A stretch of DNA of 64,000 nt from Candidatus Bathyarchaeota archaeon. Lineage in GTDB: Archaea; Thermoproteota; Bathyarchaeia; Bathyarchaeales; Bathycorpusculaceae. Shown here in pieces: positions 2,221 through 64,000 of the stretch. The position numbers and the translations under genes were made by a program. Every line of letters begins with the position of its first letter. Positions within the stretch are counted from its first letter, which is position 1. The stretch spans positions 1 through 64,000 of the forward strand of contig CAVZKL010000022.1 of the NCBI GenBank assembly GCA_963775895.1, in the 5' to 3' direction. Under the pieces are notes generated by a model. That model was not told the origin of the DNA. It saw nothing but the letters and a program-made list of their open reading frames with translations, and made no database searches.

Positions 2221-2974
2221 ATGAACTTTGACGCAATTGCTCTGACTGTTATTACTTGTTTCTCAACCATGTTTGGAGGTATCTTTGCAGCAAGATATAG
2301 GAAAAAACATTGGAATTCTTGGGGCTTTTGCGGCAGGTGTGTTGATTACTACTTCCTTGCTCGACATATTGCCACAGACTTTCAAGCTTGCTCAATCCGC
2401 CAATGTGCTTCTTGAAGATGTTATGGCTCTCACAGTTGTTGGATTCCTTTTCCTCTACATCATTTCCAGATTGATAAGTGAGCATGTTTTCAGCAAAGAT
2501 GGTGAATACATTGAAGTTAAACATCCTTTCGGTGGAGTTTTTGCAACATCAGAACTTTCGGTTCACAGTTTCATAGATGGCTTGGCAATTGGGTTTGGTC
2601 TGGAAGCAGACATTCATGTTGGGATTATAATTGCATTTGCTGTCATATGCCATGACTTCACTGATGGACTCAGTACAGTTACCGTAATGCTGAATTCTGG
2701 CAACTCACTGAGGAATTCTCTAAGGATGTTGTTCTTGGATGCCATTGCTCCAGTCTTAGGAGCAGTTGTCACACTTTTCCTTCAATTGCCACCGTATTAC
2801 ATAGTCCTACTTCTGCCTTTCTTTGCAGGTGGTTTTCTGTATCTAGGGGCAAGTGACCTCTTACCACAAGCGCATGAAGAGAATCCTCCAACACTTACAG
2901 TAATCACGTGCACAGCTGGATTCGTATTGATATTCATCCTGACTCTCATCCTGACCGGAGTGTTGAACATGTAG
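2221..2974 (+). CDS. ZIP-family metal transporter, left-arm copy, frameshift near 2305
   Basis: HSFIDG and CHDFTDG motifs, about 8 hydrophobic helices; mirror of 6134..6886. Confidence 0.85.
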
Positions 2975-3294
2975 CGCGCAAGCTTGTTCCCTAAAATGGT
3001 GCGAAAAGGGTTAGATCTCTTCAAGAGCTTAAGCCACTTCTGAAGCTTGAATCTGAATAGAGATCAGGAGAAAGCACGAAGATAGAAGGGGAATGAGAGC
3101 AGCTTTAGACCTTTTCGAACAGCCAGCGTGCGCTGCTATGAGTGTAATTAGTGAAGGAAAAAATCCTTGACTGGGAACGTGTGTGGAAGCGAAAAGCCTA
3201 AAATACCTAATGTTATATATATCTAACATAATGTCAGTAAAAACAAAATAAAAAGTTATTATGAACTAAATAAAAAACAGAAGGGGGCCAAAAT

Positions 3295-3700
3295 ATGAAA
3301 GACAAATTAGTAAATGGCACTCGGATTGCTGGTAGCAGTCTTGGTAATTGTGTCACTTGCAGCTCACTCTATGTTCTGAGTGCAAGCGGCTATGCGGAAA
3401 TTAGCTCCTGCAGAAATAGTCACAAGTTCCTGGTTGCATTCTCCTCAACATCCTGTGGGAGAGAGTCAGGTTCTGTTTCAAAAGGATTGCCTGCAAAGGA
3501 TGAAAGACTAGAAAAAATAAACTATAAGGGAGGATATTACGGGTTCATTGCGGCTATTTGGAGTGCTGTCGGTGGTCCACTCCTCGTAGATGTCCTCTTT
3601 GCGTGAATTTGAAGACCACCTGGTCACTGCGGTTGTAGTGATCGTCTCGGGATTTGTGTTTGCCGTTTCATATCTGTACCTGTCCCGGAAGGGGAACTAG
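3295..3700 (+). pseudogene. Left-arm frameshifted copy of the DUF2178-like membrane protein
   Basis: Mirror of 5418..5822 with several indels. Confidence 0.8.
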
Positions 3701-3702
3701 GC

Positions 3703-3899
3703 GTGAAGACGAGGATTAAGGAGCTCAGAGCCAGGTATAACCTTACTCAAGAAGATCTCGCGAAGAAAATTGGAGTGCGGAGAGAGACTATCCTCTTCAT
3801 AGAAAGGGAAACTATAATCCTTCGTTGAAATTGGCACACGACATTGCGAAAGCCTTGCAGACAACGATTGATGACTTGTTCATCTTTGAAGACGCTTAG
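3703..3899 (+). pseudogene. Left-arm copy of the Xre/Cro HTH regulator (1-nt deletion)
   Basis: Mirror of 5218..5415. Confidence 0.8.
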
Positions 3900-22924: not shown

Positions 22925-23036
22925 GTTCGAATCATGTGCTATTCTTTCGTGAGGGCTTTTAAGTCTAATGTTTAGAACACTTGACAGAGCGGGTTAGGGG
23001 TCTACTATTTGTCTAGGAAACAGTAGCGCGCGCTGA

Positions 23037-23148
23037 TGGCGGATCCGCTGGGATTTGAACCCAGGACTTTCGGCTTTCTTCAGCACGACGCGTTAGAAGG
23101 CCGACGCGCTTTATGGCTTAACCTGTATCCATGCTGCGCTACGGATCC
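23037..23148 (-). tRNA. tRNA-Arg(UCU) with encoded CCA and two introns (D-loop 23111-23126; anticodon 37/38 at 23076-23093)
   Basis: Acceptor stem GGATCCG/CGGATCC-G-CCA, D stem GCGC/GCGC, anticodon stem TCGGC/GCCGA, TCT at 23095-23097, T arm CTGGG-TTCAAAT-CCCAG. The BHB central helices are ATGG/CCAT and CTTC/GAAG. Confidence 0.95.
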
Positions 23149-23189
23149 ATTTTTGCGCAATTAAAGAGGAAGAGCTAGGCTGATATATT

Positions 23190-26106
23190 TTATTCTATGA
23201 AAATCGCCGGCCGATAGGGTCTTGCAAGCTGCGCCCTTGATTTCGGATCGTACCGCTCTGTTTCTTCCTCACCGTAGACGTCGACCTTTGCTTTCAGCTC
23301 TCTCTCCAAGAACCTCTTGGCCTCGTTCAAAGCTTGAATCTCGTCGATTGACTTGATCTGCAGCAGTTGCTTCTTCCTTTCCTCCGACATACGGTTCAGG
23401 TCATCCACTGTTTGACCGATGAACTTGGCCGCTTTGTCAGCTTTCGCCCTCAGCTCTGGTTTTGCCATCAAGTTCTTCATCACGTCTTTCTGAGCTACCT
23501 TGCCAGCGACCGCTTTTTCAAGCGTGCTCATCCATGCTTTCCATTTCCACGGTGCAGCGGCATAGAAACACACTCTCTTCGGAGTGGTGCCCGTTGCTTT
23601 CAGTATGTTTTGCGTGTCCTCCAGCACGTTCATGATCAACGTTTCGTTCTCTTCGGCACTGATATCCGTCTTTGATGCGTTCGGCGAAGGCCAGGAAGCC
23701 AATGAAACAAACCCTTTTCCGCCCATCATTTCCCAAAGTTCTTCACAAACGTGAGGAGCGACTGGCGCCAGCATTCTCACTTGCGCCTCCACCACCTCTC
23801 TAGCCACGTAGTCGACAGCAGGTTTTCTTTTTTCACTCTTTTCGGTCGTCCGTCTCTGATACCACTGAAAATCCTGGTCCAGCTCGTACATGATCGTGTG
23901 CACCGCCTTGCGCACGGCCAACTTTTCCATCGCTTCGGTCGCTTTTCTGATGTGTTCCTGCAGTCGGCTGAGCATCCACTTGTCTATAGCGGTCAAAGAT
24001 TCCTTTCGAATCTTGACGCTACGCGTCTTGGTCTGTTCAGACACGAATTTGTAGAGACGTTCCAGTCTGTCCCGCATCGTTTTGGCAATCGCGGGGCTGA
24101 AATCCGCATCTTGCAGCAGTTCAGCCGCTGACATGACGCTCAGTCTGACGGGATCCGCGCCAAACTTTGCCAAGGCTTCCCTGAGCGGAATGATGTTTCC
24201 GAAAGATTTGCTCATCTTTGCCCCTTCCATCATAACGCTTCCGTTCGTCGCTATCTGTCGGGGCCACAGGCTCTCAGGGAAAATGGCCGTATGGTTGAAT
24301 ATCATAAAAGTCAAGTGGTTCGGAACCAAGTCACGTCCGGAATGGCGACTGTCCAACGGGTAAAAGTACATGAACTCCTTGCGCATCCGCTCCAGAGTCT
24401 CAGCGTCCAGTTTGGTCTTTTTCGCCAGCTCTTCAGGCTCGCCGATCCCCAGGAAGACGTAGTCGAAAACTTCATCCGTGAGCTGATCAGGCTTGATCTT
24501 GTACTCCTTGATGCTCCTGACCATCGTGTAGTACGCCATGTAGATGGTCGAATCAGACAGTGACTCGATTATCCAAGCCTTGTCCCACGGAAGTCTCGTG
24601 CCCATCCCAGATTTTCGTGCGCAGGCTTTCTCGTGCAACCAGTCGATCACGTTGTTGAATTCTTGGCGGAGCTCCTCCGGCAGAATCTCCATCTCGTCGA
24701 GGTTCTTGTGTGCCAAGACTTTCCACTCTGGTTTTCCGTAGTCGATGAACCATTGGTCTTCGAAGATCTTGACGATGCACTCAGTTTTGCAGCGGCAGAA
24801 GACGGGTCTGTTGAGCAGTTCGTACATCGTTGTGGCTTTGCCTTCCCTAATCAGGTCTTGCTTAACCTTGTCTTTTGCTTCATCCACTGATACACCCAGA
24901 GTATTTGCCCGTGTTCTGTTTCATCCTGCCGTTATGAAATTCGTGTCTGTACAGTTCCTTTGTGGCTGCTTCCAGTTTCGGATCAGTCTGGTCTTGAATG
25001 TTCATCTTCTTGACCACGTCCGCGGCTGGAATTCCTGAATAGCCCGACACGTCAATCAGAGAGATTGGATTGACCGAATCCATGATTTCAGGCTTGACGC
25101 CGTACCGTGTTAACTGTGAACGTGTTTTCTTCAGGTTTTCGAGCGCGACAAAATCGTAGGGCGCGTGTGCTGGAACGGACATCACAACACCCGTCGCATT
25201 CTTCGGATCGACGAAGTCAGCTGGCAGTATCGGTATCTTGGCTCCCGTTGCCGGGTTCTCAACGTATTTTCCGATCAGCTCCTTTCCTTCGAAAGTCGCA
25301 AGGATCTTGACCTTGTGGTTGAGGTAGGTCAGCTTCTGAGCGCCTTCTTGACTGACTATCCATTGTTCGCCATCAACGTCTGCCTTAACGTATTTGGTCT
25401 TCGGGTTCAGCCAGATGTTTGTGACTCCGAAAACTGTTTCAGGACGGAGCGTACCTGTTGGAAAAACAATTCCGTCTTGCATGAACTTCAACAAGGTAAA
25501 TTCGCCGATTTCCGGTTCAACGTCGCCGACCGTGTCATGCTGACCCACAGGGTTTCCGTCTTTCGGACACCAACCAACGGGGTGGCTTCCTCGGCTGATG
25601 TAGCCCTTCTGCCGAAGCTTCTGGAACTGCCACTCAATAAAACGATTGTAGTGTGGATCTATCGTCGTGAATTCGCGTCTCCAGTCTATCGAGTAGCCTA
25701 TCTCCTTCATGCCGCTCTTGATCTCTCTGTGGAAATAGCGCGCCATCGCCATCGGGTCAGCAAGGGTCTTCAGGTTTTCTTTAGGGATCTTGTAGACGTT
25801 GACAAAGTCGGAGATGAGTCCAGTGTCGTTATCCTGAAGCCGCTTGGCCATGGCCAAAACAGGAGTGCCAGTGTAGTGAAACGCCATTGGCAACAGTACA
25901 TTGTAGCCGCGCATCCTCTTGTAACGCGCGTGCACGTCCGCGAGCGTGTAGGTCCTGCCGTGACCGATGTGCTGTGGACTGTTGGGGTACGGGTAGGCCA
26001 CGGTTATGAAACATTTAGGCTTCTTCGGGTCCGGGTCAGCTTCGAAAATCTTGGCGCTTTCCCATTTCTTCTGCCATTTCTCTTCGATTTGCCTGAAAAA
26101 TTCCAT
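23190..26106 (-). CDS. leuS: Leucine--tRNA ligase (archaeal type), frameshift near 24885
   Basis: YPYPNSPQHIGH, TLRPET, GVVMSVPAHAPYD, IESLSDSTIY and KMSKS motifs. Confidence 0.96.
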
Positions 26107-53819: not shown

Positions 53820-54141
53820 TTAGTCTTCTTTGGTGAGTTGTGCGACTTTGTTTTCGAGGTCTTCGAGTTCGGTGTTGATTTCTGTTTCGTCGTAGGTTTT
53901 GCTTATGCCGTTGATGACTTGGCTGATGTAGGCTGCTAGGCGGGTCCAGTCTTGTTTGGTCTGGGTTTCTGTTGGGTGGGTGTCGTGGGCTTTTTGTTGT
54001 GCCATCTCTGCCAGTGTTTTCAGTTGGAGGATGAGTTCGAAGCGGATTTTCTGGGTGTCGAGGGTGAATTTGTCGGCGATTGACGTGATTCTTTTGTGCA
54101 CGGTGGCTGGTGAAAGGTTTATTCGCTGTTTTTTCAGCCAT
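53820..54141 (-). CDS. Small helical hypothetical protein; start uncertain or frameshifted
   Basis: DTQKIRFELILQL...WTRLAAYISQVINGI...ELEDLE. A GGAGG SD precedes the ATG at 54141, which is one frame off. Confidence 0.6.
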
Positions 54142-54417
54142 TGTGTACCTCCCCTCCTCGGTTTCAATGTATCATGAATATTAGGATCCAAATATGCTCC
54201 TCTTCCAAAGCTTTGTCTATGCTGGTGTGCGCTGGCGATGATTTGTTCGGAGCGGTACTCTCAGTGGGCCGTCGGCTAGAGTGCGCTTGTTCTGTTTGAG
54301 CGGCTGTGTTCACTTTTCAGAACAGGGTGTTCTAATGACTAGAACTAAATCTTGCGTAGAATGTGCGTTAAGTGATTGGGCACGTCAGCGCGATTGATCG
54401 ATGTGAGTTGATGTCTC

Positions 54418-55011
54418 ATGGAAGGGTTGGGTCGTGGAGCGAGTCTTCGAGGAATATCCTTCCATGGACGAGTTAGAGTTGTTGTTGGTTGTGTGTTGGC
54501 GTTTATTGCCCTTGTCCTGCCGTTCTATAATGTTGAGGTGTTTAATCGCGGCTTGGATGGTTCGTGGAGCGCAAGTGATTACTCAGCTTATTATTGGTCT
54601 TTTAAGTCTTCGGCGATGACGTATCATTCGCTCGAGACCTTTATCAGCAGATTTGGGCTTGATCATCCTTTCTACACTTCATGGAAAAATGATGTGACAG
54701 AGGCTTTCAGCTACCCGAGTGTTTACTTCAGTGATTACTGGTTTGATTCCAGATTGAACGTGAAAGGTCTCTCGGAGTTGCTCATAGTGCTGTTTGCTAT
54801 GCAACTTTTGGTTCTGGCAGTAGGATTGGCCTCTCTTTTCATTCATGGACGGTTCATCAAACTTGCGACAGCGTTGTTGGGCGCAGCAGTCATCATCATC
54901 ATGCTCCAGTTAAACACGCTCTACTCAAGCATGAACAATCTCCTTTCCGTACATTTTATTCATTACGACTGGGTTTCTGGTTTGCAGTCTTGGCCGAAGT
55001 CGCTTTCTTGA
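54418..55011 (+). CDS. Membrane hypothetical protein; C-terminus probably frameshifted
   Basis: Three or more hydrophobic helices. Confidence 0.6.
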   Translation: MEGLGRGASLRGISFHGRVRVVVGCVLAFIALVLPFYNVEVFNRGLDGSWSASDYSAYYWSFKSSAMTYHSLETFISRFGLDHPFYTSWKNDVTEAFSYPSVYFSDYWFDSRLNVKGLSELLIVLFAMQLLVLAVGLASLFIHGRFIKLATALLGAAVIIIMLQLNTLYSSMNNLLSVHFIHYDWVSGLQSWPKSLS

Positions 55012-55144
55012 CAAGTTTGGTTAGGAACCTGAGTCCAACGCAGGCGGCGGAATGTACTATTCGCACAAGGTTTCCATAATTCTTTTATAATTTTTGTTCA
55101 CCAATTGTCTTGTGCGCATTAATTGTGTGTGCTGGTGTGTGTGA

Positions 55145-56695
55145 GTGAAAATGAGCAGAATGATCAGGGGAATAGTGTTGGGTTTTCTTATTGAACTGGT
55201 GGTATTTTCGGTTGCGTCTGTGGGTTTTGCACAGATGCGGCCGCTTCAGAGTGCAACTTTTCCTGCTGGCACTTACGTTGTTCCCATGGATGAAAAGCAG
55301 AACGCGCTGAAGCCGGGAGATGTCACGGTGTTTGGCTTCATCTGGGCGATTCTAAACGAGGGCGCCGACATATACAGAGTTATTGAACCCCCTGACGTCA
55401 CGCTTAACACGACGACTAATCCGGGTGGTGCTGTTTATTCTGGAGGAGTGATTCTCGTCAGCGCGTCCTACGGTGCAATCATTATGGCACAGAAGGTCAA
55501 CTTTTCAACGGTTGTGGTTGATACATTAACGGAAGCGTTCACTTCCAATAAAGTCTTGTTCGTCGATAGACCGACGAGAATCCTGGTTATCCGAGGATTC
55601 GAGGAGTTTGGCCACACGGAGATCACTTTGGACTGGATGAGAATCCCTTACACCATCAAGAATGCAAGTGATGTTCAAGGCGATCCTGCTATGCTGCTTG
55701 ATTATGATCTCGTCGTTGATGACTGCGAGGGATTTAATGGATATGTGATGAATGATGTGGCTAGTAACATGACGGCGCTGGCAAGCAACGGTGGCGAACT
55801 CGTTTTCACCGACATCGCACTTAAGGACTTGGCAGATGCGTTCCCAGGCTACGTCCACGTCGTTTACGGCAACGTTGATAACTGGACTGACAACGTTAAC
55901 ATTTACAATCCGCCGATCAACTTTTCAGCAGAATATCCAAGCCAGTATTCTGCTACGTTCCCTTCAAAGATAAAAATCCACGCGATGGGCGGAATGTACG
56001 TGGTTGACAACGTTACAAGACCTGCTGACGTAAGAGTACTCATGGACACGTCCGTTTTCAACTACAGTTACACTCCTCCTGCTCCTTCTCATTACGCTGT
56101 CTTGGGCTTCTACTTCCCATACGGAAATGGGCTTGTGGAAGGCTTTGCCTATCACCCCTTCGAGCAGACCGAAAACCTCACCGGCGATCCCAACTCCTAC
56201 TTGTGCGCTGCCATCCTTTACGGAAACAAATTCGTCACGGCCGTTCCTCAACCAAGCCTGTACTCCTCAGATGCCTCGGGAAACGAGAAAAACTCGTTCG
56301 ACACGTCAGAAACTGTTTACGCAACAGTCAAGGCAACGGGCCAAGATGTAAGGCTGTACGTGGTAAAGGACCAAACCACATGGACTACCGGGGATAACCT
56401 CACAGATGTTTCGAGCGACGGATTCCTAGAAATAACCCTAAACGACAACGGAACCCAAACTGAAGCATTGTGGAACCCACCATTGACGGCTGGGAATTAC
56501 GACATCGTTGAAGATGTCAACCGCAACGGCAAGTATGACGCGGGAATAGACGCGGTGGATTCAGTAACTCTGGTAGGCTTCACGGCGATCCCTGAATTTT
56601 CCTTCGTCACCGCAATGACAGCCTTCATCATCATGACCGCCGGTTTAGTAGGATTCCGAAAATCCAAACGCTTCAGAAAGTCACCGCTGAGATAA
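55145..56695 (+). CDS. Secreted surface protein with a PEF-CTERM-like sorting signal
   Basis: Signal peptide; C-terminal IPEF followed by a TM helix and RKSKRFRK. Confidence 0.85.
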   Translation: MKMSRMIRGIVLGFLIELVVFSVASVGFAQMRPLQSATFPAGTYVVPMDEKQNALKPGDVTVFGFIWAILNEGADIYRVIEPPDVTLNTTTNPGGAVYSGGVILVSASYGAIIMAQKVNFSTVVVDTLTEAFTSNKVLFVDRPTRILVIRGFEEFGHTEITLDWMRIPYTIKNASDVQGDPAMLLDYDLVVDDCEGFNGYVMNDVASNMTALASNGGELVFTDIALKDLADAFPGYVHVVYGNVDNWTDNVNIYNPPINFSAEYPSQYSATFPSKIKIHAMGGMYVVDNVTRPADVRVLMDTSVFNYSYTPPAPSHYAVLGFYFPYGNGLVEGFAYHPFEQTENLTGDPNSYLCAAILYGNKFVTAVPQPSLYSSDASGNEKNSFDTSETVYATVKATGQDVRLYVVKDQTTWTTGDNLTDVSSDGFLEITLNDNGTQTEALWNPPLTAGNYDIVEDVNRNGKYDAGIDAVDSVTLVGFTAIPEFSFVTAMTAFIIMTAGLVGFRKSKRFRKSPLR

Positions 56696-57019
56696 ACGGA
56701 AGAGCAGTAATCTTCTCGGGGCAGGGGCTCTAGGTGTTGTTCGCTTCATAGGGTATGGTTTTTGTATCCGCATTTTGCTTGGCAATCACATGTACGATAC
56801 TTCTAGGCATCTTGATCTCACGAAAAAAGTGACTTGTTAGCGCCATTTTCTGTAATATAGTATGAGGAAGGCAGAAGCCTTTTCTGTTTTTGAGTTCTAA
56901 ACAACTAGCGCGTGCTATGCGTGTGGAGAAAGCTGAAGAAAACCTAATCAAAGAAGGTTTAGATACTTGGGGTTACATATTAAGCGTTAGGAATTGTCTG
57001 CAATTCCTACGTGAAATGA

Positions 57020-57256
57020 ATGTCGCCTCCAGATGTTTTGATTGAGATCAATCGGCCTGGACAAATCTTTGAACGATTTAGAGTTCATATCGTAAAGAAA
57101 AGAAATGTAGAGCCAGAATACTTTAAGGTAGTTCCAAAGATGCACCCTGCGTTAGCTATTAAACAGGTGAATGTTGGACTTAAAGTGAAAGATGAAGAAG
57201 TTATTCAGTTTCTTAAAAGTTACTACGGAACAGATATCTTGATAAGAACTCTCTAG
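57020..57256 (+). CDS. 78-aa hypothetical protein
   Basis: ATG start; its TAG stop begins a TAGCGCGCGCC motif. Confidence 0.55.
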   Translation: MSPPDVLIEINRPGQIFERFRVHIVKKRNVEPEYFKVVPKMHPALAIKQVNVGLKVKDEEVIQFLKSYYGTDILIRTL

Positions 57257-57308
57257 CGCGCGCCTTACGGAACCGCGAGCGCGATGGGGAGCTGTGGTAC
57301 AATAGGCA

Positions 57309-57380
57309 TCATTTCTGCTTCATTGCTTCTTTCTTCTTTTTTTCTTCTTTCATCCTTTCTTTCTTTCTTTTAGTTGTCAT
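57309..57380 (-). CDS. 23-aa charged, Lys-rich micropeptide MTTKRKKERMKEEKKKKEAMKQK
   Basis: Hand translation; AT-rich TATA-like sequence about 25 nt upstream. Confidence 0.45.
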   Translation of the reverse strand: MTTKRKKERMKEEKKKKEAMKQK

Positions 57381-57612
57381 CGCATCGCGTTCTATTTACC
57401 ATATATCTCTAACAATTTCGTAGACTTGTTGTAAAGAATGTCTATTTCTATGTTTCCTTGCTAATTTTCCTATTTCACGCGCCCTTACGGAACCCGCGCG
57501 CGTCTTGTGGAAAAAGAAGCGGAAGAAGAGGTAGCCCATTGTTTGGGTTTGGGATAAAACTTTACCCCACGCACTGCAAAAGAAGCCTACGTTGCGCTCC
57601 TTGGAGGTCATC

Positions 57613-57822
57613 CTACGATTTTGGTTTTTTTCGCCTGAAACTGTCAATCAGCCGAGTGGCTCTCAATGACAAAACAAGAACTATGAGCAGTAGCAAGATG
57701 ACAGCAACTAGTGGCCAATCCTGAAAAATGTAGAAGACAACTAATGCGACTATCAAGGTAGTCAAGACTGCTGCCACAAGAGAAAGATGGAGACCATGCG
57801 CACGCACTCCACTGAGCCTCAC
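57613..57822 (-). CDS. Small two-TM protein
   Basis: Two hydrophobic helices and a basic tail. Confidence 0.55.
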   Translation of the reverse strand: MRLSGVRAHGLHLSLVAAVLTTLIVALVVFYIFQDWPLVAVILLLLIVLVLSLRATRLIDSFRRKKPKS

Positions 57823-57882
57823 TTTTGTGACTTGTCAACATCGACTATTGAATTTGTTTCTTGAGGTCTTGAAGCATCTGTT

Positions 57883-58461
57883 CTATGTTTTCGAGGCGGC
57901 CAGTCTATTTGTGACTTTGTTTCTTTCATCTTTCAGCGCTTTCAGCACTTCAGTATATTCAGTTTCCGGGCGATTCTTCATTGCATCACTGTATTGGTTC
58001 ATTTTTAGACGCAAAACATTTCTTATGATAATCATCTTGGAGGAATATTGTTCTGGCGTAATTCTATTAAGCAAACTTTCTAGGTCGGTGATGACCTGTT
58101 CGAGTGCGATCAGCCTGTAAAGATTCATAATGAGATCAACCACCTTATCCAGGCGCAATTTGTGTAGTTTTTGAGCCTTTTGTTCTATGTCAAGCTTTCC
58201 TAATTCTAGGTCTAGTTTTGGAATAATCAATGAATAAACGACCTGTTGAGCCCCCTTCTTTGTTCTTTTAACAAACTTGCCTTCGAGTCCATCCAGATGT
58301 CGTTGCAACCGGGGAGCTGAATACTTTGGATCAATTGTCTTTCGGCATAGTCTTAGCAAGGCATTGAAACGGATGGATGAATACTCCGGCTGAATAACAA
58401 GAAAGAAGATCTTGCTGCAATCTTCGCAAGTCTCTATTCCATGAACTGTCTTCTTGACCAT
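57883..58461 (-). CDS. Winged-helix domain protein
   Basis: IRFNALLR...SAPRLQRHLDGL...VKRTKKGAQQVVYSL, followed by a helical C-terminus. Confidence 0.65.
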   Translation of the reverse strand: MVKKTVHGIETCEDCSKIFFLVIQPEYSSIRFNALLRLCRKTIDPKYSAPRLQRHLDGLEGKFVKRTKKGAQQVVYSLIIPKLDLELGKLDIEQKAQKLHKLRLDKVVDLIMNLYRLIALEQVITDLESLLNRITPEQYSSKMIIIRNVLRLKMNQYSDAMKNRPETEYTEVLKALKDERNKVTNRLAASKT

Positions 58462-58629
58462 TGAAGCACCACTAACTTATGCGTACTAGTACGAATACGT
58501 TAGTGTCTTATATAATTGTGCTACTATTCGATACACCGACTAGTATGATACCAGAATAGCGTGCGCGATCCTTGTTCCAGAACATTAGGATTCTATCAGC
58601 ATTTTCTAAAACAAGAGAAATCGCATGTG

Positions 58630-58866
58630 TTATTGCTCGCGGGCTTGTTTGTATCCGCATTCTGGGCAAAAACGTGATGAGTTTGGAATTCTGTTGTTGC
58701 AGTTGGGGCAGATTCTTAATATCAGTTTGGTTCGTAGCAATGTCCCGCAGAAATTACAGTATGTTGAAACTGAGGGAACTTGTCTGCTACAACTTGGGCA
58801 GGTCAAGTATTGCCCAGGCAAAGGAAGGGGAATCAGAACCCAAGCTCCGACATTCAATTCGTTCAC
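58630..58866 (-). CDS. Double zinc-ribbon protein
   Basis: CPSC...CNFC...CPNC...CPEC. Confidence 0.75.
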   Translation of the reverse strand: MNELNVGAWVLIPLPLPGQYLTCPSCSRQVPSVSTYCNFCGTLLRTKLILRICPNCNNRIPNSSRFCPECGYKQAREQ

Positions 58867-59014
58867 TTCGATTTAATAGAGAACGTGCTGTCTCTTTTCT
58901 CTTCTCATTTGTTTCAGTGTCTTCTCTCAATGAAAGCGTACATTAGAATTCTGTCTCAGACGCTTTCTAATAACAGTCGCTCATGGTGCGGCGCTATACC
59001 AAACCAAGCACGTG

Positions 59015-59287
59015 TTAGACTGGCTTCATAGATGACTCCTTCGGTTTGGCCATCAGTTCCTTTGGTATATCAACTGTCCTGACAACATTCTGAGAGTTAA
59101 TAAGATAAAGGGGCGTTCCGTCAGGATTGTGCTTTTTTAATCTCTTAATGCCGACAAGAATCAACTTAACCTTGAGTGTCGTGCCATCTTTGAGCTTATA
59201 GATATTCCAGTGTTCTTCTTTTTCCTCAAAGTCAATGTCGTCACTCTGTGCTAGGTCCTCTGGCGTTATCGGACTTGGCGTAGCCAT
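59015..59287 (-). CDS. 90-aa hypothetical protein
   Basis: ATG start with a GGAGATGTGA SD-like sequence; EHWNIYKLKDGTTLKVK...PDGTPLY. Confidence 0.7.
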   Translation of the reverse strand: MATPSPITPEDLAQSDDIDFEEKEEHWNIYKLKDGTTLKVKLILVGIKRLKKHNPDGTPLYLINSQNVVRTVDIPKELMAKPKESSMKPV

Positions 59288-59505
59288 TGCTTCATCACAT
59301 CTCCAAACAGCAGAATAACTAGCTCACTTTAATAGCTTTCATGAAAGGTCGACTGGACTTAGGAGTCGTCATGCATGGCATTTTTCTATCCAAAAGATAA
59401 ATCCAGCAGCGCTTTTTGCTTTCTGTTCAAACACTTATGGTGGGCTGCGCACGCGTTTCCACGTTCATGTAATGGATTTCGACTACCACGACAATCTTGA
59501 TCCTA

Positions 59506-59580
59506 TCATTCCTCTTCTTCCCAGTCTTCCTCTTCCTCTCCTTCTTCCTCTTCTTCTTCCCAGTCTTCCTCAAACACCAT
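59506..59580 (-). CDS. 24-aa acidic micropeptide MVFEEDWEEEEEEGEEEEDWEEEE
   Basis: Hand translation; strong GGGGGTGA SD just upstream; mixed GAA/GAG codons. Confidence 0.6.
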   Translation of the reverse strand: MVFEEDWEEEEEEGEEEEDWEEEE

Positions 59581-60404
59581 TCGCTTTCACCCCCGTCACA
59601 TATGGATTAGATAGATTGATAATGCTCATGAAATCTTGAAAGTTATCATTCATTGATTGTCGAGAGAACGCATGTGTGCTATTTAAATCTTACGACTCAC
59701 TACACTGCGTTGGGTTTGGGCACAAAACTTTACCCTTTTTCTCTTCTTTCAGTTGCTCTGCAAGCTCACTGTGAGCCTACTTTAGAAGATGGTGTTGTGG
59801 CGCCTCAGAATCAATTTAATGTCAAATCATCTTGGGAAAAAAGAACCAAACTTAAATCCCTTCATACTGACGTGATATCATCATAGGCGCCATGATTATT
59901 TCGACTTTCACCAGCTAAGCCTATGAGAAACCGTTGAGTTAAAGCTCGCTATCGCGCGCGCTTGTGGAGACGCAAAACCTAGCATGCTAGACTTTTTAAG
60001 TATGCAGAACAAAAATATGTCAAGGTGCGCGCTAGACCTCAATGATTGAATGGCATCTAGGACAATTCCTAGGATTTCCTTCTGTCTTAAACTCCAGCCC
60101 ACAGTTCTTACATCTGCAGTTCTTTGCTCTACCATATTTTCTGTATCTTTCACTCATTCTTTTTCCTTCTTAGCGCGCGCGTTGAATTAGGTGGTCAATA
60201 ACGAATGCAAGTTCCTTGTTTTCTTCGGTTACCATATCAGAATATCAGACTAGTTGACACAATCTCTTTAACCTTTTCAAGGTTTGTCTGAGTAAACGTT
60301 GCCGTCGAAGAATTTGACCAATATCCAAAAAACAAGAAAAAGCACGCGCTACTAACCTATCAGACCTATAAGAAACAATGAACATAGATAGACTCGGTAA
60401 GAAG

Positions 60405-60464
60405 ATGCCAAAGAAAAGAGCACACGCAGGACTCAAGAAGAAGAAGAAACGTCAAGAAGCATAA
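60405..60464 (+). CDS. 19-aa basic micropeptide MPKKRAHAGLKKKKKRQEA; alternative start at 60378
   Basis: Hand translation; CTATAAG TATA-like box at about 60366. Confidence 0.45.
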   Translation: MPKKRAHAGLKKKKKRQEA

Positions 60465-60884
60465 TCAACGCGCGTTTTGAATCAGAACACGTGTTCACAA
60501 AAAAGTCTTTTCGTAGATGTGGCGCTCGCTTCTTCACAAAACAAGGATGAGGAATGTGTCATTAAGTTGGATAGGGGAACATTAGATTTATTAGTGGTAC
60601 TGTCAGAGCATGCCACTAAAATATTACGCATCAACAGTATTCATGATAACATTCTATGAGCATTTTTCAAAACACGGAAAACCCCATATACTATCTATAG
60701 GGGAAAATCCCTGTTTTGACTTGTGGGACAGGACTGTTCAAGCTTTGAAAGTTATAAAACCATCAATCTAGGAGCGCGTCTGAGCAGGTTAAGGAAAGTA
60801 GAAATCCAACTTCAACCGTTTGTTCTATGTGTTTAAGACTGCCGAAGCTCGCGCTAGACAGCGAATCATCCTGGTGGATCAGGC

Positions 60885-61571
60885 ATGGAAATCAAATTCA
60901 TAATGCTTGTCGGCACATTTTTTATTGTTCTAGGAATGTTTAACGCAGACTTGGTTTATGCCGACTTTGGAGTCCATGTCAGCGACCAGTTCTTATATTC
61001 GATGGAATCATCTTGGTACACGAACACTGGTGTTTCACCACCATCCGACCTTGCAAAATCTCTTGATCTCGCGGTAATGAATTATACGATATATGGAATC
61101 TCGGGACCGCGGATTAGTGTCAATCGAACATACTCTTACAAGAATGGAACATTTTGGAGCGAAACTTTTTCGGGCGATTATGGCGGCGGGGATTTTCTAC
61201 CAACGAATCTTAATGCGGGTGACGCCATACCAGAAGCAAATGGTTGGATGATAAACGGAACAATCACGCGGGCTTATGGAAACGCAAATCGATTGACAAA
61301 TTACGTCAATGTAAACATCACACTTTGGGAACAGTTTCCGAACGCGAACTTTACAGAGTATTGGGACAAGGTCACTGGGGCGATGGTGGAAAGACGCATT
61401 TCTTATTTCAACGAATCTGGCGCTAATACCACAGATTTTGATGTTTTGATTAAGATCAAATATGCCAGTTTATGGACGGTGCCCGAGTTTCCATCATTTC
61501 TTATTCCGTCACTCTTCATGATAACAATGCTAGCTGCGATCATAGTCTACAGAAGAAGACGTCTGACCTGA
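60885..61571 (+). CDS. Secreted protein with a PEF-CTERM-like signal
   Basis: Signal peptide, YWDKVTG, and C-terminal VPEF followed by a TM helix and RRRR. Confidence 0.85.
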   Translation: MEIKFIMLVGTFFIVLGMFNADLVYADFGVHVSDQFLYSMESSWYTNTGVSPPSDLAKSLDLAVMNYTIYGISGPRISVNRTYSYKNGTFWSETFSGDYGGGDFLPTNLNAGDAIPEANGWMINGTITRAYGNANRLTNYVNVNITLWEQFPNANFTEYWDKVTGAMVERRISYFNESGANTTDFDVLIKIKYASLWTVPEFPSFLIPSLFMITMLAAIIVYRRRRLT

Positions 61572-61628
61572 ACTCCATAGAACCTCTTATGTGGTTTTCA
61601 GAACAGAAAAAGAAAAAAAGGAAACTCT

Positions 61629-62517
61629 TTATTTTCGTTTTCTGAAGAGCTTCACTCCATCAACATCAGTGACATAGTCAAAGCCCTGCTCGATGAGCTT
61701 CGCTGCTTCATCAACAGTTTTTGCAGTTGCAGAATAGTACTCTTCTTTGTCGTTGAACTTCACCAAATGCGTGTAGATCAGAGTATTGTTGATGTTCCTG
61801 TGTCCCAGTTTCTCTTTAACGAGCAAAATGTCCTTAGTTCTGTAGTATAGCATCGTTGCATAATAGTGTCTCAAATCATAGAGCCGAATCTTCTTGAGTT
61901 CAGAATCGTTAAGCTTCTTCGCTATGGATGCTTTCAGTCTCTCATAAGTATTGCTGATAACCCCTCCTGAAGGGAATATTCTGTCGTTTACCCCGAATTT
62001 CCTCTTCTTGACGTAATTCGTGAGCAAAGCGTGCGTTTCTTCTTTGAGTTTCAACATCCTCGGATTGCCATGCTTTGCTGACACAATTGAGATTACTCCT
62101 TTATCCAAATCTATGTCGTTAAGCGTCAAGCTGCCTAACTCAACAGGCCTAAGACCGCACTCCATTGCAAGTCTGTAAACGATGACATATTTCTGCGATG
62201 CATGACCAATTATCAGATTGATCTTCTCTTCTGTCGGCACCCTCGGAATCTTGTTGACCTTCACATACCTCGGTTTAAGAAAAGAGATCCCATAGAACTT
62301 GCAGTATTGATCGTAGAAATCACAAAGATTCGCTTTGTAGCTGTCGCGCCATTTTCCTCTTGCAACGTATTCCAGAACAGAGCTCGTATTGTTGAATTCT
62401 GTCTTCGATGCAATCAGATTCAGAGCCCTAATCAACGTTGCCAAATAAGCTTCAGAATAGCCTCTGTTTCTAAGCTCAAAAGCTAACTTTAGAATCTTGC
62501 CTCGAAAATCTGAGAGT
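61629..62517 (-). CDS. Tyrosine recombinase/integrase; N-terminus unresolved
   Basis: CGLRPVEL (R), SAKHG (K), LYDLRHYYAT (x-x-x-R with Y at the His position), LGHRNINNTLIY (H, Y). The frame stays open upstream of the TTG at 62444 as RLSDFRGKILKLAFELRNRGYSEAY. Confidence 0.9.
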
Positions 62518-62868
62518 CTACGAGTATTCTCTGAACGTGTAGTTGCACTTGGTGCAGCGCAAGAACTGAGTTGAGGATTCGTCCGCTCCCCTGGTCTGCA
62601 CCTGCCAGACGTAGGCCAAGTTGTTTCCGCATTTCGGGCATTCGATCCTTACGGTTGGCAACGTTCTGAGTTTCTGTTCTTCTTTACCTATCACTGCCAC
62701 GAGCTGCTCGGGTTTGTGCTGGATCACTTTCGCAACCTTGGGTTCCGCTTTGCCGCTGGATGCGTGCTTCTTGTAGCCGCATTTGGGACAAGCAAGCATC
62801 AACGTCTCTCCCTTCCCTTTCCCTTTTTTCGGGGCCAGCCTAGAACCGCACTTCGGGCAGAAATCCAT
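62518..62868 (-). CDS. tfs: Transcription factor S (TFS/RpoM)
   Basis: FCPKCG...CPKCG and CPKCG...QTRGADE...RCTKCNYTFREY. Confidence 0.95.
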   Translation of the reverse strand: MDFCPKCGSRLAPKKGKGKGETLMLACPKCGYKKHASSGKAEPKVAKVIQHKPEQLVAVIGKEEQKLRTLPTVRIECPKCGNNLAYVWQVQTRGADESSTQFLRCTKCNYTFREYS

Positions 62869-62947
62869 AAAACGATTCACCAGTGCCGTTTCATTAGCCT
62901 TAGCATTGTCCCTCTTAAATCTTTTCTCACAGAGATCAATAGTGAAA

Positions 62948-63535
62948 CTACACGTCAGCCAGACCTGAAGCGACAAGGTGAGCAACCCGCAGAGCCTCAG
63001 GGACGCTACTACGAGTCGACGTCAACTTCACGATTTTCCGCGCATCTTCTTCCAATAACCCGCAGATCTCAATGTACACTCTTTCACGAGTGCTCCTTGT
63101 ACTCACTTCGAAAATCGGACCGGCGTTCAAAAGAGCCTTCCACCTCTTCTGAGGCTGGGGCAAGTTTTTCAATGCCTTTTTGATGTCCTCAAGATCAGGT
63201 CTATCGCGGGTCACCGCGATAACGGGAAGTTCGGTCTCAGCGTTGAGTCGTTTGAGGTCGACAACATTGAACCCTGCCAGTGTCACACCGTCCAACATTA
63301 TGACTCTCAACTGACGATGATGAGCTGAACTTGTCACCATAGAAGCGACCTTGTCAGTAGCGTCGAACCCGTCTATCTTCACCTTCGTGCTCATCACACC
63401 ATCAAGCCAGTATCCACCGCGAAATACGACACCGACAACCGGGGCAAAGCCCCTCGAATGAGGAATAAACACACCATCGTCGACGCCTAAAACGCGAATT
63501 TCGGGCTTGATCGTACGGAATTTCTCCAAGGACAA
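62948..63535 (-). CDS. DUF99 (endonuclease V-like) protein
   Basis: RVLGVDD, DGFDAT, LAGFNVVD and VPEALRVAHLVA. Confidence 0.9.
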   Translation of the reverse strand: MSLEKFRTIKPEIRVLGVDDGVFIPHSRGFAPVVGVVFRGGYWLDGVMSTKVKIDGFDATDKVASMVTSSAHHRQLRVIMLDGVTLAGFNVVDLKRLNAETELPVIAVTRDRPDLEDIKKALKNLPQPQKRWKALLNAGPIFEVSTRSTRERVYIEICGLLEEDARKIVKLTSTRSSVPEALRVAHLVASGLADV

Positions 63536-63683
63536 AATTCATTCCTCGAACAGTAAAAATATCATATAAAGAGACGTTATAAGGATAATCGAGACACTGA
63601 TCGTGAAGTCTCAGTTTGGACGAGTCTGGAATAACAATGTTTTTTCCCTGAAACGTAATGGTCCTGTGGAAGGTTTGGCTGCA

Positions 63684-63701
63684 CTTTGACCGTGGTCAAA
63701 G
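63684..63701 (-). terminator. Perfect hairpin just downstream of rpoL
   Basis: CTTTGACC-GT-GGTCAAAG; the terminator role is a guess. Confidence 0.35.
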
Positions 63702-63707
63702 CGAGAA

Positions 63708-63992
63708 TTACTTTTCCTTGAGAGCTCTGTTCAGCTCCTTGCCGAATTCTTTGTTCATTTCACGCGTCTTCTCTATCGCATTCTTGAGTACTTGTTCAGG
63801 TTTCACTTTGCCCTTCGTGCGGATGTAGATAATGGAGTTTGAGGCTAAGGGATGTGGAATGTCATATCCGGCGAAGTCCACGTTTTCTTCTTCCAGCAGG
63901 TTCTTCTGCAGCAGATTGCCGATAGTGTGACCTACTCCTTCAACTTCGATCCTCAGTTCATTTGGACTTTTTTTGAGGACGCTAACTTTCAT
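63708..63992 (-). CDS. rpoL: RNA polymerase subunit Rpo11 (L)
   Basis: EGVGHTIGNLL...AGYDIPHPL. Confidence 0.95.
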   Translation of the reverse strand: MKVSVLKKSPNELRIEVEGVGHTIGNLLQKNLLEEENVDFAGYDIPHPLASNSIIYIRTKGKVKPEQVLKNAIEKTREMNKEFGKELNRALKEK

Positions 63993-64000
63993 TCTCTTCG

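Follow-up and report, generated by a model that had tools for sequence, protein, structure and literature searches.

In a 64,000-nucleotide stretch of a Bathyarchaeia genome (hereafter the window, positions 1–64000 of contig C22), an array of tiny genes lies next to a tyrosine integrase gene at positions 56890–62517. We find that this array is a patchwork of small modules in a variable, low-GC island, which abuts tfs, the gene for transcription factor S, and starts with int(C), the dead C-terminal half of the integrase. Many of the modules end at a short GC palindrome, and this palindrome is a joint element of the flexible genome in this genus and in several other Bathyarchaeia families. The neighbouring integrase is not the engine of the rearrangements, and the palindrome is not its recombination site. 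Palindromic seams beside a broken integrase hint at an undescribed way of gene swapping. We favour, as about evenly probable, a trans-acting process that breaks and joins DNA and that either uses the palindrome or leaves it behind. Full-text word searches of open-access papers and bioRxiv preprints returned no description of the palindrome.

The assembly consists of 1.77 Mb in 28 contigs and has a GC content of 47.6%. It was compared with ten other genomes of the genus and with contigs from four unrelated metagenomes of peat, wetland and sediment (X1, X2, X4 and X7). Genomes, contigs, loci and families are cited below by G, C, L and f numbers where they need to be told apart.

A fixed palindrome concentrated between genes

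The sequence-only reading that drew attention to this stretch had described a recurrent (CG)n motif in AT-rich DNA. All 13 of the motif strings that it listed are present at the positions it gave; those at 60773 and 60848 are 5-nt CG runs only, and the string at 60341, AGCACGCGCTA, is indeed the reverse complement of the core of the string at 56906. The stretch is AT-rich (GC 0.40–0.43 in the 1-kb bins from 57001 to 62000, versus 0.476 for the genome), and the recurrence holds against a dinucleotide-shuffled background. The octamer GCGCGCGC occurs six times in the window, three of them inside the flagged stretch, where 0.74 are expected and none of 100 shuffles reaches six. By a relaxed definition (a CG run of at least 6 nt, or an 8-mer with one transition), positions 56890–60900 hold 11 sites, or 2.7 per kb, versus 0.43 per kb in the remaining window. 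The reading had also extended the motif with CTTGTGGA or a nearby GTTY. The first does continue two motifs, at 57504 and 59961, but it is not a general feature: CGCGC followed within 3 nt by TTGTGGA is found three times in the genome, two of which are the reading's own examples, and neither addition is general as an extended site.

Rather than a loose (CG)n, the recurrent element is one fixed palindrome, (T)A-GCGCGCGC-T(A). Alternating C/G runs of 6, 7, 8, 9 and 10 nt number 313, 118, 155, 79 and 26 genome-wide, with a second length peak at 8–9 nt, and the 9-mers are the GCGCGCGC core plus a flanking G or C. The phase is specific, since isolated octamers read GCGCGCGC in 125 cases and CGCGCGCG in only 27. 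Around the 125 isolated copies, A is found at −1 in 82, T at +1 in 82, T at −2 in 50 and A at +2 in 45, and no base is conserved past 2 nt on either side. The full TA..TA flank is present at 13 of these 125 octamers and at 39 of the 94 10-mer sites in G080, a single-contig genome of family f35. Outside long open reading frames (ORFs), GCGCGCGC occurs 198 times, versus 0–5 for eight other GC-only or GC-rich palindromic octamers; inside them it occurs 55 times, versus 6–27 for the comparison octamers, ORF interiors making up 79% of the genome. An origin by mutation bias, as for HIP-like repeats, was rejected because the excess is almost entirely extragenic. Single-strand folds of 30-nt windows around the motif reach 0 to −3.8 kcal/mol, no better than shuffles, and neither a T-run nor a stable hairpin was found beside the palindrome. 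Copies decay through CpG transitions.

Runs of at least 8 nt number 263 in the genome, and 195 of them (74%) lie outside ORFs of at least 100 aa, which cover 85% of the DNA. They are strongly clustered, with 149 of the 263 in 35 clusters of three or more, whereas 200 random placements give 58 on average and 88 at most, and GC content is low in many of the clusters. On a crude gene map, the motif lies within 20 nt of a stop codon in 52 of 195 cases and within 20 nt of a start codon in 9 of 156, and 52 of 172 classified intergenic sites fall in convergent spacers, which represent 18% of spacer length. The palindrome keeps no fixed distance from gene starts. We also asked how often its TAG serves as a regular stop codon and rejected this role, as there is only a modest excess: an open frame of at least 30 codons precedes 36% of TAGCGCGC compared with 25% of all TAG triplets.

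Six of 34 tRNA genes, versus about 0.44 expected, have a CG run of at least 7 nt within 60 nt of the 3' end, and none has one at the 5' end. A seventh case is the window octamer at 23026, which stands 3 nt past the 3' end of an intron-bearing tRNA-like gene (23040–23130, minus strand; insert of about 20 nt). ARAGORN missed this gene, and its Rfam score of 20.6 bits is below threshold. Positions 23037–23198 are 91% identical in G005, and the octamer coincides with the break in synteny relative to five other genomes of the genus.

The palindrome extends well beyond this genome. The sequence AGCGCGCGCT occurs 56 times here (reversed control, 1) and 7–114 times in each of its ten congeners (controls, 0–4), versus 0–1 times in the 20 nearest genomes from outside the genus. 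Among 201 genomes sampled across the class, 20 contain at least ten copies with a control of at most five, and G197 is a borderline 21st (11 versus 4); the palindrome-rich genomes of this sample fall in families f1, f26, f27, f29, f35 and f36. Presence can vary even within a genus: of the 12 genomes in g23, one has 14 copies and the other 11 have 0–3. In G080, the 12-mer TAGCGCGCGCTA occurs 39 times, spread along the chromosome, while the reversed control is absent. Of 22 G080 sites retrieved, 20 are spanned by no ORF of at least 80 aa and ten have a stop codon within 25 nt, which in four of the ten is the TAG of the palindrome. Because the same sequence recurs in distant families with uneven presence, we consider it conserved as a sequence across distant Bathyarchaeia, with a patchy distribution. 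Four genomes of the distant palindrome-rich families f26 and f35 revealed no modules in common.

These counts refute the simplest explanation, which is that CG runs are merely common in this genome and their grouping a compositional accident. Hexamer runs are common within genes too, as that explanation would have it, but it fails to account for the excess over shuffles in the window, the reversed controls here and in the ten genus genomes, the rarity of other palindromic octamers outside ORFs, or the phase specificity.

Breakpoints, travelling units and new joints

Gains, losses and swaps of sequence, as compared with other loci, the ten genus species and the four metagenomes, end at CG palindromes far more often than by chance, as the sequence-only reading had proposed to check. 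The flagged stretch has blocks in common with eight contigs (C6, C7, C9, C10, C11, C16, C18 and C20), and many of the block ends fall on motifs. Examples are 56914–57464 (C9, 96%), 59483–59951 (C20), 60029–60349 (C10, 95%) and 60342–60600 (C7). The third of these, 95% identical to C10:42843–42524 and 97% identical to G009:C27, has different neighbours on both sides. Among intragenomic repeats of at least 100 bp, 31 of 455 ends lie within 3 nt of a CG run of at least 6 nt, versus 0.4% of random positions. For repeats of 100–3000 bp with at least 85% identity, a motif is found within 9 nt at 30 of 91 junctions, versus 0.6% of random positions. When the island in the window is aligned with the ten genus genomes, 15 of 69 distinct match ends are within 5 nt of a motif (4.1% expected), and an independently chosen island on C10 gives 19 of 58 (3.3% expected). 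Only three collinear indels were found within the genome, and aligned strain-level duplicates contain no informative palindrome polymorphism.

Metagenome contigs leave the window sequence at 56909, 57254/57256 and 59951: X7 contigs diverge behind the first, X2, X4 and X7 contigs before the second, and X2 and X7 contigs behind the third. An X1 contig carries 28 other letters in place of 59446–59951 (506 bp), so that 59445 is joined to 59952, and an X2 contig departs at the palindrome at 60171, with 39 other letters between 60171 and 60259. Insertions, deletions and replacements alike thus have ends at the motif, which is the behaviour of PeSL cassettes in phages.

At least one unit, which encodes a 41-aa zinc ribbon, behaves as a promoter-less cassette in many contexts. 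The ATG lies 13 nt away from one of the flanking palindromes, the TAG overlaps the second, and the ribosome-binding stretch is carried along. The unit is represented by 35 copies, of which six are in four genomes of the genus (98–99% identity) and 29 are metagenome loci with an exact 30-mer match. By our own reading of the aligned copies, the unit has 13 different left contexts, in 11 of which a CG run directly adjoins it, and 12 different right contexts, eight with a palindrome. At one junction of the cassette the register varies among GCGC, GCGCGC, TGCGCGC, GCGCGCGC and GCGTGCGCGC.

Other units with palindromes at both ends are 57254–57502, 60025–60351 and 60351–60489. The first, whose left end is the palindrome at 57254, is 93–97% identical in G009, G005 (twice) and G002, and the last is 90–93% identical in G001, G002 and G008, where it resides in a different, conserved context. 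The sub-module 59711–59951 is 93–99% identical in five genomes (G009, G002, G005, G004 and G008), and positions 57885–58558 share 92% identity with G094, a genome of another genus. In general, palindrome-bounded modules are 90–99% identical between species. Core genes (tfs and its neighbour) are only 72–78% identical between genomes of the genus, compared with 98–99% for the cassette, and the modules have therefore moved recently. The form of one ORF plus a 3' site is seen for the 41-aa unit, but not for modules that cut through genes or for gene-less units; many inter-palindrome units in related arrays are 58–108 bp, too short for a gene. A viral origin of the modules was considered and rejected, as viral contigs gave no exact 30-mer or 20-mer match to them (0 each), and PHROGs matched the integrase and a zinc ribbon only.

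The palindrome is present in only one of the two compared sequences at 22 of 30 motif-bearing junctions. Three cases show it in the place of ordinary sequence that an intact allele retains. Two of them come from contigs C2 and C16, which are 90–93% identical: C16 has TAGCGCGCGT in place of 427 bp that in C2 complete a 151-aa ORF, and C2 has GCGCGCGC in place of about 1.3 kb of C16 that include the start of a 160-aa ORF. In the third, found in L066 and L090, AGCGCGC beside the zinc-ribbon cassette replaces 16 nt that are kept in four copies of two subtypes, and both flanks are otherwise collinear. The palindrome at such sites is therefore likely to be the joint made by a break-and-join process. 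One-partner palindromes and replaced ordinary sequence do not fit a reciprocal site-specific exchange between two pre-existing sites.

New palindromes at which 16 bp, 427 bp or about 1.3 kb of neighbouring sequence has gone could also be scars without a function of their own. They would then be footprints in which two GCGC tips remain between TA duplications after cut-and-paste excision, or filler from end joining. The consensus TA-GCGC-GCGC-TA has the expected form, and gene-less units as short as 58–108 bp between copies, decay by CpG transitions and a patchy distribution even within genus g23 are all compatible with scarring. However, no parent element with GCGC tips was found, and the IS630-type DDE_3 domain is missing from five of six palindrome-rich genomes searched, two of them single-contig. 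The TA..TA flank is incomplete at most isolated octamers here and in more than half of the 10-mer sites in G080, and 11 of the 13 contexts of the cassette retain its 3' CG run, which looks more like a site that travels with the unit than a series of independent scars. We regard this origin as unlikely.

A second alternative is passive shuffling. Here the palindrome would be a regulatory element bound by a dimeric protein, for example a 3'-end element, an insulator or an operator, and segments would be exchanged at it by short-homology or microhomology repair with no dedicated enzyme. The concept is documented for T4-type phages (PMC2839356). The fixed length of the palindrome, flank information that fades outward as in a dimer binding site, its position near stop codons and in convergent spacers, and the dispersed, intergenic sites in G080 (20 of the 22 examined) would all suit such an element. 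In addition, slipped-register variants match the annealing of repeats, and a second conserved box, described below, is a recurrent module boundary as well. On the other hand, 8–12 bp is very short for homologous exchange, most motif-bearing junctions have the palindrome in one partner only, and in the three cases above it arises where the intact allele has none. A regulatory role is also difficult to reconcile with the lack of a T-run or stable hairpin, with folds that resemble those of shuffles, with the variable distance to gene starts and with decay through CpG transitions. We consider passive shuffling rather improbable.

The broken integrase and other features of the stretch

The int(C) frame is open for 340 codons from stop to stop, has its first ATG, GTG or TTG at 62444, and runs in another frame into the 3' end of tfs. 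SSV-type 'suicidal' integrases carry the attachment (att) site inside their own gene, which is split on integration (PMC8371274). Here int(C) reads into its target in the manner that is the hallmark of this type, with the att site inside the integrase gene. The same junction between tfs and int(C) is found in four other species (L001, L002, L003 and L007), and integrase paralogues on C18 and C23, as well as relatives elsewhere, read into tRNA genes likewise. A search for int(N) or a second att site by short-word BLAST of 62430–62640 against the genome gave only chance matches of 12–17 nt, and contig C22 contains no repeat longer than 12 nt. PF00589 was the only family found in the window integrase at E ≤ 0.01; PF16795 (Phage_integr_3) was not found in it and is carried by a paralogue on C9.

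Homology to nine other genomes of the genus starts at 62467–62524, which is the start of conserved synteny. Homology with related species stops at the integrase stop codon, and leftward there is no synteny as far as 51.5 kb, the limit of the searched region. Contig C6 starts at the tfs stop (corresponding to 62522), and this suggests that a second strain carries different content at the site. Contig C22 from 62522 to 68030 (in the window, 62522–64000) is duplicated by C6 1–5509 (5.5 kb, 97.5% identity), and further contig pairs of the assembly overlap with 90–98.5% identity; the genome bin is probably a mix of two strains. Contig ends of the assembly often lie in or beside palindromes.

The sequence-only reading had proposed an integron-like locus whose neighbouring tyrosine recombinase would capture or shuffle cassettes, with a minimal CG core as the crossover site. 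Part of this holds: breakpoints do fall at CG palindromes, one unit is cassette-like, and the array adjoins a tyrosine recombinase gene. The link between motif and integrase does not. The motif is not particular to this locus but forms 35 clusters across the genome, and among the 125 ORFs of at least 70 aa in 12 clusters, 41 have a Pfam match and only three belong to the integrase family; no integrase was found in most of the palindrome clusters examined. The integrase itself is a truncated fragment that has no start codon and whose att site is placed in the tfs 3' end. In L001, int(C) is 90% identical, yet the tfs–int(C) pair is accompanied by only three CG runs of at least 6 nt in 16.8 kb. 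Against integron integrase models the gene scores 69.7 bits for NCBIfam TIGR02249 (cut-off 265) and 40.3 bits for NF011946 (cut-off 435), and it is far below the XerA cut-off too. No attC-like fold was found, and the ORFs lie on both strands rather than in the uniform orientation of integron cassettes. The cargo of other clusters does include GNAT acetyltransferases, SnoaL-like and DJ-1/PfpI proteins, isochorismatase, cupin and NUDIX, as in typical integrons, along with dodecin, HSP20, ABC transporters and glycosyltransferases. Overall, the integron analogue is nearly excluded.

Other clusters are similarly diverse, the 322 ORFs in 44 of them belonging almost entirely to single-member families. 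The cluster on C10 (L050, G000:C10:41000–54500) contains a 12.1-kb insertion that none of the ten other genus genomes has at the same site. The insertion lies between two direct copies of a 14-nt repeat, TAAGTATTTAAGCA (L050 131–144 and 12261–12274), its final bases are TAGCGCGCGC, and it includes 21 of the 23 CG runs of at least 6 nt in the whole 13.5-kb locus. No integrase was found among its ORFs of at least 70 aa. In L053 (G000:C7:1500–10500), a Xer-like integrase ORF at about 2807–3870 lacks the last catalytic segment and is followed by a 31-aa SSV-type C-terminal tail. The tail is 90% identical to the window integrase, and an octamer palindrome lies 35 nt beyond it; by its sequence, this arrangement appears to be another chimeric joint.

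The coordinates of palindromes, modules and genes in the stretch are given in Table 1. Tiny genes do lie between the motifs in either orientation, as ORFs of 78, 69, 192, 78, 90, 41 and 228 aa on both strands, and the intervals 59953–60025 and 60773–60848 contain no ORF. When these seven products and the integrase were scanned against Pfam, PHROG and NCBIfam, matches were obtained only for the integrase and for the 78-aa and 41-aa zinc ribbons; the 192-aa product had none. The 78-aa double zinc-ribbon gene has copies of 75–92% identity on C7 and in eight other genomes of the genus.

Table 1. Palindrome copies, modules and genes between position 56906 and tfs
Positions	Strand	Feature	Remarks
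56906–56917		palindrome copy TAGCGCGTGCTA, with one CpG-to-TpG change	C7 homology (98%) ends at 56909; C9 homology (96%) starts at 56914
57254–57283		palindrome TAGCGCGCGCC followed by CTTACGGAACC and another CG run	TAG of the palindrome is the stop of the 78-aa ORF 57020–57256
57476–57503		repeat CACGCGCCC TTACGGAACC CGCGCGCGT, a direct repeat of the 57254 unit	right end of module 57254–57502
57883–58568	−	module with 192-aa ORF, ending at palindrome TAGCGTGCGCGA (58557–58568)	
58630–58866	−	78-aa double zinc-ribbon gene (module 58645–58987)	Pfam DZR 5.9e-11, Zn_Ribbon_1 1.6e-12
59446–59456		palindrome copy TGCGCACGCGT	motif string located in sequence
59483–59951		module ending exactly at palindrome 59953	matched in C20
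59953–59961		palindrome copy CGCGCGCGC	
60025–60035		palindrome copy GTGCGCGCTAG	on the minus strand gives the TAG stop of the 41-aa gene
60033–60170 (138 bp)	−	promoter-less cassette: 41-aa zinc-ribbon gene (60032–60157) and 13 nt upstream	palindromes at both ends; Pfam rubredoxin-like ribbons
60171–60182		palindrome copy TAGCGCGCGCGT	
60183–60351		second module, ending in palindrome AGCACGCGCTA (60341–60351)	
60351–60489	+	module with 28-aa basic mini-ORF (60379–60465)	from palindrome 60341 to palindrome AACGCGCGTT (60467–60476)
61629–62517	−	int(C), catalytic fragment of a split SSV-type ('suicidal') tyrosine integrase	PF00589 5.9e-21 (ORF 61629–62444)
62518–62985	−	tfs (transcription factor S), 3' end the attachment site	Pfam Zn_ribbon_TFIIS 4.3e-18

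Several smaller elements were observed in and near the modules. Module 59711–59951, which has a very high summed contig depth in metagenomes, includes a C/D-box sRNA-like sequence on the minus strand (59798–59892) with C and D boxes and a terminal GGCGCC stem. Its Rfam match to snoZ118 (28.9 bits, E = 0.066) is below the gathering score, and an Rfam scan of 54000–64000 gave no match above gathering scores. Two mini-ORFs have a strongly biased composition: the 24-aa product of 59495–59570 (minus strand) is, by eye, almost all Glu, Asp and Trp, and the 28-aa product of 60379–60465 (plus strand) is rich in Lys and Arg. A G-rich box, GTTTGGGTTTGGG(A/C)(T/A)AAAACTTTACCC, is present at 57541–57568 and 59709–59735, and further copies mark module boundaries in other parts of the genome and in metagenome contigs, as these two do here. 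From its sequence, it might be a candidate minus-strand promoter.

An imperfect inverted repeat of about 70 nt lies at 60648–60722 (TCAAAACAGGGATTTTCCCC...GGGGTTTTCCGTGTTTTGA) and is 84–95% identical in L001, L002 and L021. In each case it is found, in otherwise unrelated DNA, 0.6–2 kb from the end of a tfs-linked integrase. None of the 20 pairs predicted by RNAalifold shows a compensatory change, and the repeat could be a DNA site (an origin or att partner) or a small RNA. An 85-nt repeat of the form ...TTTATTCGCTGAAAAAAAGC...CCTCCCCTCCTCGGTTTCAATGTATCATGAATATTAGGATCCAAATATG is located at 54114–54197 and in 35 other places, for a total of 36 copies with about 87–100% identity. Each copy is followed by unrelated sequence, often with an alternating GCACGCGTGC-type run directly next to it, and the repeat has no Rfam match.

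A proposed break-and-join process and its relation to known systems

That the sequence is defined and conserved across families suggests either that a protein recognizes it or that it is the fixed product of a reaction. Breakpoints this precise indicate that DNA is broken or joined at the palindrome, and the slipped-register variants fit the annealing of a self-complementary repeat. These features, taken with the new joints, are why we favour a break-and-join process. In outline, a trans-acting, sequence-specific activity would cut at the palindrome or leave it behind. Because the GC core is self-complementary, the ends could anneal in either orientation, and also in a slipped register. Segments would in this way be lost, captured, swapped or flipped, with a palindrome of slightly variable length staying at each seam, and selection would keep such seams in dispensable DNA only. 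Between species, modules might be carried by integrative elements that target tRNA genes and tfs.

A more specific proposal is a dedicated, genome-wide cassette exchange, in which an enzyme recognizes duplex TAGCGCGCGCTA, cuts it and rejoins the ends in either orientation. We put this forward tentatively, as possible but less than probable. Equally tentative is the notion that such a system would be integron-like in its logic but would differ in both site and enzyme and lack a fixed platform.

A number of results weigh against a break-and-join process. Most breakpoints have no palindrome: it is absent from 61 of the 91 repeat junctions, from 54 of 69 match ends in the window island and from 39 of 58 in the C10 island. 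The G-rich box is a recurrent boundary too, which fits passive recombination at any short common sequence. The polarity of two of the three new-joint cases is read from gene intactness only. Match ends and related genomes are not independent events, and P values for the breakpoint excess are overstated for this reason. The best public read run contains 18% of sampled words, and the metagenome comparison is made with contigs of relatives, in which uncovered parts are uninformative.

The search for an enzyme likewise weighs against this process, as neither methylase family tracks the palindrome and no enzyme was identified. Restriction-modification by a cytosine-5 methylase was rejected because PF00145 is present in three of 31 genomes, this one not included, and restriction-modification by an N4/N6 methylase because PF01555 is present in 28 of the 31, with or without the motif. 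A REP/RAYT system was rejected in that the Y1 transposase PF01797 occurs in none of the 31 genomes, while a control search matched in six of 14 named genomes. An IS630-type transposase (DDE_3, PF13358, the one transposase family searched for besides Y1) was found in one of six palindrome-rich genomes.

Bathyarchaeia are among the most abundant archaea in sediments and peat. To our knowledge none is genetically tractable, and we know of no account of how their large accessory gene pool moves. The 8–12 bp palindrome at the seams offers a concrete, searchable marker of recent gene flow, and a defined DNA substrate with which the responsible protein could be fished out. If there is an enzyme behind it, it would represent a new kind of DNA rearrangement system, and a dedicated exchange system in particular would explain the passage of single genes between species of uncultured archaea. 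If instead the palindromes are scars, they would record the activity of an unseen mobile element.

Several known repeats resemble the palindrome in part. The REPs of REP/BIME elements are imperfect hairpins of 20–40 nt with a cognate Y1 transposase (RAYT). Like these, the palindrome is a lineage-specific, highly repeated extragenic element, often located past stop codons and between convergent genes; in contrast to them, it does not fold, and no Y1 transposase accompanies it in the 31 genomes. Excision footprints of Tc1/mariner-IS630 elements are TA-flanked and palindromic. They share with it the TA-xxxx-xxxx-TA form, the appearance at sites previously without a palindrome and the local deletions, although no element was found here, the IS630-type transposase is missing in five of six genomes, and the TA flanks are incomplete. 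Yeast mitochondrial GC clusters are mobile, at least 30 nt long, and reside in AT-rich spacers and at deletion junctions, whereas cyanobacterial HIP1 is frequent inside genes. Both are short GC-rich palindromes that, as here, multiply in a lineage-specific way. The present palindrome is shorter than the GC clusters, at 8–12 bp, and differs from HIP1 in that its excess is almost wholly extragenic; PF00145 was not found in this genome.

The int(C) of the window reads into its target, and its paralogues into tRNA genes, as in SSV-type integrases (PMC8371274). It departs from the typical SSV-type case in that integration is at the 3' end of a protein gene, tfs, and that int(N), a second att site and PF16795 were not found. 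PeSL cassettes of T4-type phages (PMC2839356) are units with a promoter and a terminator stem-loop that recombine by homology. They have in common with the modules described here short conserved intergenic motifs, hyperplastic regions rich in small ORFan genes, and indels and replacements that end at the motifs. The motif here, however, is 8–12 bp, has no promoter or terminator features, and occurs across many species, in their cellular chromosomes.

Integron cassette arrays and CALINs have also been reported in Archaea (bioRxiv 10.1101/2022.02.06.479319). They consist mostly of single unrelated accessory genes, each with a 3' recombination-type site, in arrays that can be distant from an integrase, and the palindrome-bounded arrays are similar in these respects. 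As with integrons, at least one unit is promoter-less, and units move between species. The site is very different, as attC is an imperfect hairpin of 55–140 nt and the palindrome is a perfect duplex of 8–12 bp with no single-strand fold. Moreover, the units described here lie in both orientations, many contain no gene, there is no IntI, and the palindrome can arise at a new joint.

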